In this document: positions 8,827 through 17,230 of the stretch, piece by piece | Layout: each line of letters opens with the position of its first letter | How positions within the stretch are numbered: position 1 is the first letter of the stretch | Assembly (NCBI GenBank): GCA_048939995.1 | Contig: JBHLOY010000017.1 | Coordinates: forward strand, 1 to 35,506 | From: Promethearchaeota archaeon | GTDB taxonomy: Archaea > Asgardarchaeota > Lokiarchaeia > Sigyniarchaeales > SOKP01 | Direction: 5' to 3' | Length of the DNA: 35,506 nt | Notes under the pieces: model-generated | Seen by the model: the letters and a program-made list of their open reading frames with translations, nothing else | What the model was told of the DNA's origin: nothing | The model's database searches: none | Program-made: the position numbers and the translations under genes

Positions 8827-9732
8827 ATGACAGGAATCTATTCGAATTTTATGGTATTTGAACTATATGATAATGGTGAATATAAAAGACTAGATATTGA
8901 AGAAGAAGATTTTCGCGACGCCAAAGGGGATGGTGTTTTACATCCTTCTCAAGTAACTATAATTGTTAGAGAAGATTTAAGATGCATTTTCATTTGGAAA
9001 GGGGTAGAGTCCTCTGTAAGAAAAAAGTTTATTGCTTCGCGAGTTGCATCTGAATTGCAACAAGAATTAATGCAACAAGCAGGTTTCCATAGATGTAGGA
9101 TTGTTTCAGTGGATCAAGGAGAAGAACCAATAGAATTTCTTACTGCCTTTGGATTTAAAAGCAATGTTCAAAAGCCAATAGAGAGTAAAAAATCTGAGGG
9201 AAAAAACCTTGAAGTGAAAACCTCTGAAGATCATAAAATAAATGATCATAATACTAATCCAAAACCTTTTTCTTCAAAATCTTTTAAACAATTAAAAATT
9301 GAAAAGCAATCTAAAAATATTTTAGAGAAAGTCCTTAAAAAGGGAACTCCTGATAATTATAAAAGAAAGAATATATTGACTGGAACTAATATACTTTATG
9401 GGGAAGTAATAAAGAAAGTAAATATCTTTGGAGAAGTAATTGAAGAAAAGGAATGGGAGCCAATTTATAATGTTCCAAAAGAAATATTCGAATTAGAGGG
9501 GCATAAACTACGTATCTACTTTAATAATGAAGTTGGAGAAATTGAGGCTATAGAAATTTTAGAATTAGATTCTCTATTTAATAAGGTTGATAAAAAAGAA
9601 TCAAACTATAATAATTGGACTGTTAAACAATTAAAGGATTTTTGTAAGGAAAATCATATTACTGTTCCCTCATCCTATAGAAAAGCTGATATTGTACATC
9701 TTGTAAAAGAATTCACTAATTCTGAAAAATAA
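8827..9732 (+). CDS. Gelsolin-domain protein with C-terminal HeH/LEM/SAP-like motif
   Basis: Gelsolin fold signature VTIIV...IFIWKG..SSVRKKFIASRVA...VDQGEEPIEFL; charged linker; middle beta-rich domain; tail WTVKQLKDFCKENHITVPSSYRKADIVHLV. Confidence 0.8.
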   Translation: MTGIYSNFMVFELYDNGEYKRLDIEEEDFRDAKGDGVLHPSQVTIIVREDLRCIFIWKGVESSVRKKFIASRVASELQQELMQQAGFHRCRIVSVDQGEEPIEFLTAFGFKSNVQKPIESKKSEGKNLEVKTSEDHKINDHNTNPKPFSSKSFKQLKIEKQSKNILEKVLKKGTPDNYKRKNILTGTNILYGEVIKKVNIFGEVIEEKEWEPIYNVPKEIFELEGHKLRIYFNNEVGEIEAIEILELDSLFNKVDKKESNYNNWTVKQLKDFCKENHITVPSSYRKADIVHLVKEFTNSEK

Positions 9733-9762: not shown

Positions 9763-10401
9763 TTATGGGACTAAAATCATCAGCAAAGTGATAATCCAAT
9801 AAATGAAAAATACTGCTGAAGCAATAATCAAAATTATTGATGATATGGTTAAACATTTTACACGTATTTTTAATGCATATAACAATAAGAATATCCTCGA
9901 TACTACCATTAGGGGTATTATTATAATAGCAATTATCTCAAAAATTAGAACTAAAGTTGGAGTTAGTGGAAAAAGCGATGCTGGGAACATAATTATATTT
10001 ACAATTAACAGAATTACAGAATAAACAATCCAGAAAATTCCTGACAAGAGTAAATTTTTTCCAAAACGATCACTATTTTTTTTTCCTAAAATTATTATCA
10101 ATATCCCAAAAGTAATCATTGATATGATATTTGGTATGATATACATAATAATATGGTTTATATTCATAGTTAATGGTGTAAACCCCATAAAAGTGTAAAC
10201 TAGAGAAGATAACCGTCCCTTTAAAAGCCCATATACAATCTCAATAGCCCCTATAATTATGAAAAATATAGAACCTTGAAGCTTTTCTTCTTTTTTTAAA
10301 TTTAATGCACCAGCAATTACGATAAATAGATAAGCTATTATTAACAAGGAGAGTCCAATTATATCAAGAACAATTCTGGTTTCAATCAATTGAAATAACA
10401 T
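9763..10401 (-). CDS. Multi-pass (~6 TM) membrane protein, paralog A
   Basis: Highly hydrophobic; paralogous to 10540..11166. Confidence 0.8.
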   Translation of the reverse strand: MLFQLIETRIVLDIIGLSLLIIAYLFIVIAGALNLKKEEKLQGSIFFIIIGAIEIVYGLLKGRLSSLVYTFMGFTPLTMNINHIIMYIIPNIISMITFGILIIILGKKNSDRFGKNLLLSGIFWIVYSVILLIVNIIMFPASLFPLTPTLVLIFEIIAIIIIPLMVVSRIFLLLYALKIRVKCLTISSIILIIASAVFFIYWIITLLMILVP

Positions 10402-10539
10402 GGTTATAAAACGTCTTTTTTAGATTTTTAAATTTATAAATAAAATCGACTTCTTTATTTAAAAAACTTTAGTCAATAAGGGATACCTAAAGAAATCACT
10501 AAAATGTATTGAAGTAAAAAAACAAAATATGATTTATTT

Positions 10540-11166
10540 TTAAGGGAAAAAAGCAATGAATATATCGATAATATTATAAAAAATGAATACCGTTGAAGCT
10601 GTGATAAATAATATTGATGCAACGAGTAGGTTTTTCTCATTCATTTTAATTGAATATAATAGCAAAAAAATTCTCGAGGCTACCATAAAAGCTATTACTA
10701 TAAGTGATAAGTTAATGAAGATCACGATCACTGTAGGTGTAACCGGGAACAAGCCGTAAATATTAATAATTAACAAGGTAGCAGCATAAATAATCCAGAA
10801 AATTCCTGACAAAAGTAACTTTTTTCCAAAGTTTTCTTTATTCCGTTTCGCTAAAATTATAATCAATACCCCAAAAGTGATTATTGATATGACATATGGG
10901 ACAATCCTCATGATTGAATAGGTTATCCTGTAACTCAACATAGTATAACCCATAAGGAAGGGAAGATAGTTATATAATTGCCACTTTAGAAGCTCGTATA
11001 CAATCTCAACAGCCCCAATGATTATTAAAAATAGTGGAGCTTTAAGATTCTCTTCTCTTTTTAAATTTATTGCACCAGTAATAACGAGAAATAGATATCC
11101 TAATATTAGTAATAAGGTTAAGATAAAAAAGAGAATACTATTGATTTCAACCAATTGGAATAACAT
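10540..11166 (-). CDS. Multi-pass (~6 TM) membrane protein, paralog B
   Basis: Shares MLFQL, IIIGAxEIVY, ITFG, FGKxLLLSGIFWI, SRIFLLLY with paralog A. Confidence 0.8.
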   Translation of the reverse strand: MLFQLVEINSILFFILTLLLILGYLFLVITGAINLKREENLKAPLFLIIIGAVEIVYELLKWQLYNYLPFLMGYTMLSYRITYSIMRIVPYVISIITFGVLIIILAKRNKENFGKKLLLSGIFWIIYAATLLIINIYGLFPVTPTVIVIFINLSLIVIAFMVASRIFLLLYSIKMNEKNLLVASILFITASTVFIFYNIIDIFIAFFP

Positions 11167-12327: not shown

Positions 12328-12996
12328 TTGTTTTTTGGTAAGAGATTTAGTGGATATCACGGAGGACCCTTTTCAGGATTAGATATTTTAGTACTTTCTA
12401 TCATTAAAAATTATGAAAGTACGGGAATTTCTGGTTATGATATAATTCTCGAAATCAATCAGACATTTAAACCAATGTGGAGAGCTTCTCCCGGTACAAT
12501 TTATCCTTTATTAGGGCGCCTTGAAGAGAGAGCCTTTGTTGAGGCTGAAGAAATCATTGATGAGAACAACCGTCAAAAAAAAATCTATAAAATTACAAAG
12601 ACTGGAATAGAACGTCTTGAGGAGGTACTGAAGGATAATTTAGAATCAAGTATGAACACTCTTGGAGATTACATTAGAACAGTGGTTCAAACATGGCTAC
12701 CTGATGAAAAAAGAATTAATAGGGTAATGACTTGTTTTCCTTTTCATTGTTCTCCTCATCACAGAGAAATTGACAAGGAAGATTATTCATTAAAAAATAT
12801 TAATCGCTTGGAGAGAATTTTGAAAGAACTAAAGTTTAGTAAGCGGAGATTAGTGCATAGATTAGAAGAAATTGATATTGAGATTGAATCTTATCAAAAA
12901 GTATTAGATAATTTAAAGAATGAAAGAGATCAAAAAGCTAAAACGATTCCCATCGTAGGAGATGACGAATACGAGAGAGGTTTTGAGAAGGAGTAG
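12328..12996 (+). CDS. PadR family transcriptional regulator with C-terminal coiled coil
   Basis: SGYDII, WRASPGTIYPLLGRLEE, KKIYKITKTG; heptad-like tail. Confidence 0.9.
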   Translation: MFFGKRFSGYHGGPFSGLDILVLSIIKNYESTGISGYDIILEINQTFKPMWRASPGTIYPLLGRLEERAFVEAEEIIDENNRQKKIYKITKTGIERLEEVLKDNLESSMNTLGDYIRTVVQTWLPDEKRINRVMTCFPFHCSPHHREIDKEDYSLKNINRLERILKELKFSKRRLVHRLEEIDIEIESYQKVLDNLKNERDQKAKTIPIVGDDEYERGFEKE

Positions 12997-13044
12997 AACT
13001 CACCAATAAGTTGAATAATAGATTAAAAAAGAGAGGTAATAAAT

Positions 13045-13512
13045 ATGTGTGATGAAAAACATCATGGACCGAATATGTGGGCAGGTTGTTGTTCTCCAAG
13101 AGATATGGCACGAATGAAACATATGGCAGGTAAATTTATGAGACAATTTATGGGGGGATTTGGTAATTGGATACCCTATAATATCGAGGATCTTGGAAAC
13201 GAGTACTTAATTACAGTTCCTTTACCAGGGCGCACAAAGGAAGATGTTCAAGTATCATTGATAAATAAAAATCTTAATGTTAGTGCTAAAAAACCTAAAG
13301 TTCCTGAAAAAGAAGGAACGAAGAAAGAAGAGGAGAAAGGAATTCCATTTCCTTTTTATGGTTTTAGATTTATCGATGTCAATATGGATATTCAACTTCC
13401 GACAGACGCAAATGAAGATTTAATATCATCGAAGATGGCAAATGGATTATTAAGAATAACTTTAGGGAAAAAACCTGCAAAACATATCGATATAAATGAG
13501 GGACAGAACTAA
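13045..13512 (+). CDS. Small heat-shock protein (Hsp20/alpha-crystallin)
   Basis: LPGRTKEDVQV, IQLP, NGLLRITL, C-terminal IDI (IxI) motif; SD gaggt upstream. Confidence 0.9.
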   Translation: MCDEKHHGPNMWAGCCSPRDMARMKHMAGKFMRQFMGGFGNWIPYNIEDLGNEYLITVPLPGRTKEDVQVSLINKNLNVSAKKPKVPEKEGTKKEEEKGIPFPFYGFRFIDVNMDIQLPTDANEDLISSKMANGLLRITLGKKPAKHIDINEGQN

Positions 13513-15634: not shown

Positions 15635-16672
15635 TCATCTCCTTATTGCTTCTGGTTCATTGTTTTTCACCATTTCGGAGTATACCATTTCTAATTGCGA
15701 TGTTTTTGGTTGTGTAAATGAAACTATTGAGAAATCCGATTCAAAATCCTTAATGAGAATTTTCAGAATTTCTGCTCTTGATTCGGCTTTACCATCATAA
15801 TAAAACTTTAATTCTTGTTTTTCGGGTTTATATTTTATTGGAATGGCCGATATAGAAGGATCCAAATCCAGATCTAAATATGGATTAAGTCTTTTGGTTA
15901 AACGATTTATAATTGGACCTAGTTTTTCAGGCTCAAGTGGTTTGAGCAAAATACAATTTAACATACTGGTTCTTAAATTTGATGCTAAATTTTCCACAGT
16001 GTCAAACCCGATAATTTTTCCATAATTAATCAAAGCAATTTTATCGCATACCTCTGAAATTTCATATAGCATATGAGAAGCAACAAATATAGTTTTTCCT
16101 TGAGATTGAAGCTCTCGGATGTATTTTCGTATTTCAATTCTAGCAAGGGGGTCAAGACCGGTCTGAGGTTCGTCTAGAATGACGATCTCTGGGTCATGAA
16201 TAATAGCTTGAATGATTCCTAATTTCTGGGTCATCCCTTTCGAAAAGTTCTTCACTTTTTCATATTTCCATTCTGAAAGCCCAAACAGAGTTAAAAGTTC
16301 ATCAATTCTATCATTGATCTTATCTCTTGGATACTTTTGAATTTTAGCAAAATATTTAAGTAATTCATAAGCCGTCATGTTGTAAAAATTAGGTATGTCA
16401 ATCAAAAAGCCCATCTGGCTAACTGTACTTGATATATTTTGTAAATCTTCTAAATGACTATGATTAGTTCTAACTAAGATTTTACCTGAATTTGGTCTTA
16501 AGATTTTTGCAATCATCTTTATTGTTGTGGTTTTTCCAGCACCATTTGGGCCAACTAAACCCACAGTTTCTCCACTGCACACTTCGAGGTTAATTTTATC
16601 TACTGCAGTAAAATTTCCGAATCGTTTTGTTATGTTTTCTAGTTTAATTACTATATCTGACATTGATTTCAT
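15635..16672 (-). CDS. ABC-2 type transporter ATP-binding protein
   Basis: Walker A GPNGAGKTT, signature FSKGM, Walker B VILDEP, H-loop SH. Confidence 0.95.
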   Translation of the reverse strand: MKSMSDIVIKLENITKRFGNFTAVDKINLEVCSGETVGLVGPNGAGKTTTIKMIAKILRPNSGKILVRTNHSHLEDLQNISSTVSQMGFLIDIPNFYNMTAYELLKYFAKIQKYPRDKINDRIDELLTLFGLSEWKYEKVKNFSKGMTQKLGIIQAIIHDPEIVILDEPQTGLDPLARIEIRKYIRELQSQGKTIFVASHMLYEISEVCDKIALINYGKIIGFDTVENLASNLRTSMLNCILLKPLEPEKLGPIINRLTKRLNPYLDLDLDPSISAIPIKYKPEKQELKFYYDGKAESRAEILKILIKDFESDFSIVSFTQPKTSQLEMVYSEMVKNNEPEAIRR

Positions 16673-16681
16673 TTTTTTAGT

Positions 16682-17230
16682 TTACTTTTTATTTTGATTT
16701 TCCAATTTTGAAATCTTTTGTTCAATATTTTGAAGTTTTGTGTTTAGTATTTCGATCCGCTTTTTGACAAATGACCTTTGAAATCGTAAAACGTTGATAT
16801 CATCTGTCTCAGAACCAATTCGATTAAATGGAGGTCCATGTCTGAAAAAATCTTTTTGGATGTCTGGAAATTCATCTTTAATTCCAAAAGTAGATGTGAT
16901 AATAGATCTTATTGATTCCCTTATTTCTTGTTCTTTCTTAATCATTATATCAAGGGTCTTTTTACCAGCTTCGGTAATTTCATAAATAATGACTTTCTCA
17001 TCTTCTTCTTGCTTAATAGGTTCAATCAAATTTTTCTCTCGTAAATTCTTAAGAATTGTATATATTGTTGAGTCGGCAATCGGATCCCATACTCCAAAAG
17101 AGCGTTCTTCAATTGCTTTTTTTATCTGGCGTCCATGCATTGGTTCTTTTTCTAAAACTAATAAAGTTAGTGTACTTATGAACCCTTTTTTCATTGCTTT
17201 TCCAAACTTATCGGCAATATCTTCAACCAT
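16682..17230 (-). CDS. PadR family transcriptional regulator
   Basis: KKGFIS...PMHG..IK..IEE...STIYTILKNL...YEITEAG; C-terminal coiled coil; first gene of the ABC operon. Confidence 0.9.
   Translation of the reverse strand: MVEDIADKFGKAMKKGFISTLTLLVLEKEPMHGRQIKKAIEERSFGVWDPIADSTIYTILKNLREKNLIEPIKQEEDEKVIIYEITEAGKKTLDIMIKKEQEIRESIRSIITSTFGIKDEFPDIQKDFFRHGPPFNRIGSETDDINVLRFQRSFVKKRIEILNTKLQNIEQKISKLENQNKK

Follow-up and report, generated by a model that had tools for sequence, protein, structure and literature searches.

A GelX-type gelsolin protein with a C-terminal helix-extension-helix module in one family of Lokiarchaeia: a possible actin regulator targeted to nucleic acid

Could a single archaeal polypeptide bring control of the actin cytoskeleton to nucleic acid? 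The question is raised by an open reading frame (ORF) at positions 8827-9732 on the forward strand of contig JBHLOY010000017.1 from a Promethearchaeota archaeon (assembly GCA_048939995.1), of which we analyzed a stretch of 35,506 nucleotides, hereafter the window. The original prediction saw here an N-terminal gelsolin domain, a linker, a beta-rich domain and a terminal helix-extension-helix (HeH) module, an architecture that our analysis confirms, and proposed that the product couples actin to DNA or RNA. The explanation that we favor, with a probability of roughly one half, is that this 301-residue product of a GelX-family gene, assigned by homology and by its match to a named GelX protein, severs or nucleates actin independently of calcium and carries a tail that would target it to nucleic acid without sequence specificity; we infer both binding activities as well as the cellular role.

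Sequence and structure comparison finds only one gelsolin-fold domain, which is N-terminal (residues 1-112; 8827-9162, +), of the ProGel/1DGelX type, and carries the WxG motif (W57-G59). The most invariant stretch of the protein and of its family is the long helix of this domain (residues 64-85; 9016-9081, +), in which R65, K67, F68, I69, S71, A74, and Q78 are invariant and which matches both B35_GelX from Lokiarchaeum ossiferum and ProGel from Thorarchaeota. In solved gelsolin-actin complexes this helix contacts actin, and homology suggests the same role here. The acidic D/E calcium ligands of 2DGel are replaced, by alignment only, by R65, K66, and Q78. Thor ProGel (PDB 7c2f) and the Asgard 2DGels (7c2g, 7c2h, 7whf, and 7whg) share the gelsolin fold and the long helix; however, ProGel has no further domain, while 2DGels combine two gelsolin domains with a central WH2-like motif and are controlled by calcium, and the 2DGel of this genome is encoded by a separate gene (L008). 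The genome also encodes Lokiactin, and further gelsolin-like paralogs (L004:4205-5005, L005:3088-3822, L009:3218-3826, and L007:2947-3168), comprising two divergent proteins with X-like domains, one with a gelsolin and an all-helical domain, and one ProGel-sized ORF.

The 301-residue protein has no NCBIfam match and 301 homologs at E<=1e-3. Its closest match in L. ossiferum, UYP44381.1, was named B35_GelX in a preprint on the motility of that archaeon (bioRxiv 10.1101/2025.11.30.690169), and the best match in a closed 6.0 Mb genome (G312) is letter-identical to UYP44381.1. B35_GelX aligns in both domains, with 50% identity in the gelsolin domain (over 104 residues) and 27% in the conserved second domain, known as domain X (residues 159-259, E 8e-11 pairwise). 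It was enriched in a Lokiactin co-immunoprecipitation (co-IP; log2 2.28, adjusted p 0.024) and clusters with Thor 1DGelX/Thor_GelX in the grouping of the same preprint, on which the link to Thor 1DGelX rests (bioRxiv 10.1101/2025.11.30.690169). Thor 1DGelX (KXH72031.1) binds rabbit actin with a dissociation constant (Kd) of 7.7 µM, and severs and nucleates filaments independently of calcium (PMC7444086). Like Asgard 1DGelX/GelX, the protein studied here has a single gelsolin domain followed by a long linker and a second conserved domain, and it lacks the calcium ligands. Taken together, the identity of UYP44381.1, the match across two domains, the co-IP result and the conserved long helix indicate that the core is a known kind of actin regulator; as far as sequence can assign it, the core is Asgard GelX/1DGelX, an already known family and not a new one. 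The original prediction had considered the architecture unfamiliar among characterized Asgard gelsolins, which stands for the HeH tail, since no description of an Asgard gelsolin-SAP/HeH fusion was found in the literature searched (most subscription journals lay outside its coverage), but not for the core.

Between the two conserved domains lies a disordered, poorly conserved linker (residues 113-152; 9163-9282, +; predicted local distance difference test, pLDDT, <50 over 114-149; 18% mean identity). Domain X itself (residues 153-247; 9283-9567, +), delimited by profile matches and the structural model, is modeled as one helix and six beta strands, which corrects the coiled coil predicted for it in 2020. 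Its profile matches 115 of the 301 Asgard genomes searched, among them every one of the 68 from the same family and of the seven from the sister family, and Thorarchaeota genomes also encode gelsolin + X proteins. Among 1.8 billion representative sequences it has 82 matches, of which the full-length, strong ones have an upstream gelsolin domain. Two tandem copies of domain X occur in five GelX proteins (L057, L058, P0121, P0122, and P0132). The domain X profile has no sequence match in the PDB, a Foldseek comparison of the X + HeH model with the PDB returned nothing at E<=0.001, and no solved relative was found among the structures searched, with the Atlas searches returning only the protein's own family and the VIA-align list being filled by HeH matches, so that domain X was barely probed there. 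As these structure searches were limited, a new fold is not claimable for domain X. A likeness of the X + HeH model to alpha-crystallin was dropped, as it rested on weak rows (E 0.14 or more, root-mean-square deviation about 12 Å).

After a short spacer (residues 248-259; 9568-9603, +), flexible by model and conservation, the protein ends in the SAP/Rho-N/Ish1-like HeH module (residues 260-300; 9604-9726, +), supported by fold comparison. The tail models as a pair of helices with an extended segment between them, spanning about 35-45 residues, which is the HeH superfamily fold that had been proposed for it. This two-helix fold is shared with the SAP domains of Tho1, SAF-A, PIAS, and Ku70, Rho-N, the C-terminus of T4 endonuclease VII, FluMu gp35 (2out), Ish1, and LEM, as are the TVxxL(K/R) and KAxI motifs and the basic residues near the N-termini of both helices (here the conserved K270, R285, and K286). 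The GxK loop typical of SAP domains is lacking. A villin-headpiece reading of the tail found no Pfam or fold support. All 120 best homologs retain the tail, 24 of them in two copies, so the expectation that close orthologs would keep it was borne out; the homologs' tails reach Pfam E values of about 1e-11 to 1e-12. Net charge of the tail ranges from +1 to +9 (median +4), and every host group of the module conserves one basic position in helix 1 and one or two more where helix 2 begins. Segment by segment, conservation falls from 68% in the gelsolin domain to 64% in the HeH tail, 51% in domain X, and about 20% in the linkers.

Among the 301 Asgard genomes, the HeH profile was found in 64 of the 68 genomes of the same Lokiarchaeia family, weakly in one of the seven of the sister family, and in four others. 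A wider range, suggested by homologs that depositors labeled Thor-, Hod-, and Odinarchaeota, was not accepted; L010, the only one of them included in the tree, groups within the clade of this family. Because the tail is nearly confined to one Lokiarchaeia family, it is, on this distribution, a late, lineage-restricted gain in that uncultured family and not a eukaryotic precursor. In a tree built on the gelsolin + X domains, with a midpoint root only, the protein and B35_GelX share a 99-row clade (94/59), itself part of a 101-row clade (100/99), and B35_Gel1 lies elsewhere; the Thor proteins are nearer to B35_Gel1 than to B35_GelX, on long branches. The protein falls within a 55-row clade (100/99) that has HeH and lacks a terminal R-x-L-(P/K)-x-I-P motif, and all but three rows of this clade keep the tail, the three being two replacements by a helix-hairpin-helix (HhH) domain and one aberrant C-terminus. 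The clade is nested in a family-level group in which HeH and the motif occur together or separately. L002:4650-5555 and most other Lokiarchaeia GelX proteins (P0121-P0201) carry the motif, as does, without HeH, the same-genome paralog on contig C7. It is plausible that, after a gene duplication, the copy here kept HeH and lost the motif. The motif itself appears to resemble both the LKKT actin motif of WH2 and a class I SH3 ligand.

At least six mutually unrelated proteins of the family carry the HeH module; in the source genome, four hosts were found. The module forms the N-terminus of the product encoded between smc and scpB, a probable ScpA kleisin (L041:2109-3122, contig C5), in many genomes of the family; the source genome's ScpA has no direct Pfam or PDB match and is assigned by position and by its ortholog in genome G207 (Pfam SMC_ScpA, E 2e-4). 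The module is also found near the C-terminus of Topo VI-B (L042:2326-5634, L044, L149, and L182), which in this family is 1100-1200 residues long and has a long insertion, one or two HeH modules and then a short, winged-helix-looking final domain. In one genus, the usual HhH of RadA is preceded by an acidic linker and, at the N-terminus, an HeH (L148:343-1674 and L175:334-1644). Sharing of the module with ScpA, Topo VI-B, and RadA suggests, as context, that the tail may bind nucleic acid. A further host is a 420-residue IFT52-GIFT/GATase-like protein with HeH at its C-terminus (L001:6208-7470, contig C13), which also has a ribbon-helix-helix-looking segment and a coiled coil. A conserved 318-residue protein (L006:2740-3696, contig C11) has, besides an N-terminal Rho_N-type HeH, a SWIM-like motif (CxC...CxH) and what may be an OB fold.

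The slot occupied by the tail is exchangeable. In two GelX members from within the HeH clade, the HhH domain stands where HeH would be, and this HhH is 63% identical to one appended to ribosomal protein eL13; AKKK-rich tails occupy the same slot in other GelX members. Such HhH domains are appended to eL13, aIF2-gamma, and an FKBP-type peptidyl-prolyl isomerase (PPIase) (L198:1498-2118, L201:1435-3054, and L203:532-1686). The presence of different types of nucleic-acid-binding tail in one slot points to a generic polyanion, DNA or RNA, as ligand.

We therefore hypothesize a protein in which the gelsolin domain would bind actin via its long helix, gelsolin domain and domain X together would sever, cap or nucleate filaments as their homologs suggest, and the HeH module, gained in this one family, would bind nucleic acid without sequence specificity, DNA somewhat more probably than RNA. 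The tail may then be a targeting tag, focusing actin control on the nucleoid or the ribosome-rich cytoplasm, rather than a load-bearing tether.

Several observations weigh against this hypothesis. The tail matches Pfam SAP, Rho_N, HeH, and Ish1, but, unlike members of these families, falls below each curated cut-off, and none of the four is favored. Neutral and acidic copies of the module exist, and its hosts include one, L150 (net -8), that is no DNA protein. The donor of the HhH replacement points to RNA and ribosomes, whereas the HeH co-hosts point to DNA. No conserved neighborhood was found: on five other contigs the surroundings of the gene, apart from those in the closest relative, are different, and partition genes are absent from them; RFC subunits lie near the gene on one of the five, without being conserved. 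Relative to B35_GelX, the protein here has extra residues inserted ahead of the core strand region. The co-IP-positive B35_GelX also differs in having the terminal motif and no HeH, and consequently its affinity for actin may not be transferable to the protein here; a co-IP signal can, moreover, be indirect. HeH is likewise missing from the Thorarchaeota GelX-type proteins examined. These absences, together with the near confinement of the tail to one family, also speak against the earlier suggestion of a pre-eukaryotic analog of cytoskeleton-chromatin tethering: taking the distribution at face value, the tail is a lineage-specific convergent analog and not a pre-eukaryotic precursor of LEM tethering. 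Unlike Heh1/Src1/MAN1, the protein has no transmembrane segment (no hydrophobic span in the sequence and none in the model) and no MSC domain (no MSC-type Pfam match). Eukaryotic MRTF/MKL1, a transcription coactivator regulated by G-actin, combines RPEL actin-binding repeats with a SAP domain; however, its actin-binding part is unrelated and there is no homology beyond the small fold.

A further observation of this kind is that some HeH-fold relatives bind proteins, as in emerin LEM-BAF, MANF/CDNF SAP with the ATPase domain of BiP, SAP30, and phage baseplate parts identified by fold comparison; because LEM binds BAF and the MANF/CDNF SAP binds BiP, the ligand cannot be read from the HeH fold. 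The tail might accordingly bind a protein, either a chromatin protein common to ScpA, Topo VI-B, and RadA, or an actin/Hsp70-fold ATPase such as Lokiactin, for which HeH would substitute for the lost R-x-L-(P/K)-x-I-P motif. We consider this unlikely: HeH and the motif coexist in many relatives, which means that HeH was not acquired in place of the motif; the unrelated HhH fold can take the place of HeH, which a generic polyanion fits better than a specific protein site; and the surface residues common to all hosts are basic.

More doubtful is a physical, load-bearing tether, in which this Lokiarchaeia family would have independently evolved a one-polypeptide bridge between Lokiactin and the chromosome, using the HeH tag of its SMC kleisin, Topo VI, and RadA, with filaments nucleated or anchored on the nucleoid and helping to position or segregate it. 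The two-ended architecture with flexible linkers, the tandem HeH copies and the module common to SMC kleisin and Topo VI agree with such a bridge, as do environmental Lokiarchaeota cells that show condensed DNA separated from ribosomes (PMC8776820). However, the characterized 1DGelX homolog severs filaments and was only weakly associated with them in cells, making it a poor load-bearing candidate; since it severs and nucleates actin, local regulation fits better than tethering. Tail-less GelX proteins in L. ossiferum and Thorarchaeota indicate that the link is dispensable elsewhere, and no partition or DNA genes are conserved nearby.

We give little weight to the tail being a generic appendage for solubility, stability or weak electrostatic localization, with no specific actin-nucleic-acid role. 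The spread of HeH over unrelated hosts, the similar additions of HhH, and the existence of sister GelX proteins without any module would suit it, but the tail is conserved nearly as well as the gelsolin domain and better than domain X, is kept almost throughout the 55-row clade, and has just four hosts in the source genome. Finally, we regard it as very improbable that this paralog's gelsolin domain no longer binds actin and that the protein has its function elsewhere. Although the terminal motif is missing here and present on the same-genome paralog, and ProGel, a gelsolin domain on its own, has a very low affinity for actin (Kd 337 µM; PMC7444086), the long helix is invariant and Lokiactin is encoded in the genome.

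Elsewhere in the window, two tandem paralogous membrane proteins (212 and 208 residues; 9763-11166, -), without a Pfam match, converge on the GelX gene; a PadR-family regulator lies next to an Hsp20 gene (12328-13512, +), and a second probable PadR-like gene is located upstream of an ABC transporter (15635-17230, -). A scan for sigma-70 promoters and terminators stayed at chance level, such bacterial-type models being ill suited to archaea.

How DNA is positioned relative to the actin cytoskeleton in Asgard archaea is an open question, for which this protein offers a small, soluble handle in its 45-residue tail, and the contig C7 paralog and B35_GelX of the cultured L. ossiferum provide natural pairs with and without it. 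The reach is limited: a module acquired late and in a single uncultured family would not account for nuclear tethering in eukaryotes. If it is true that nucleic acid binds or gates an actin-severing protein, this would be a new regulatory input for Asgard actin.
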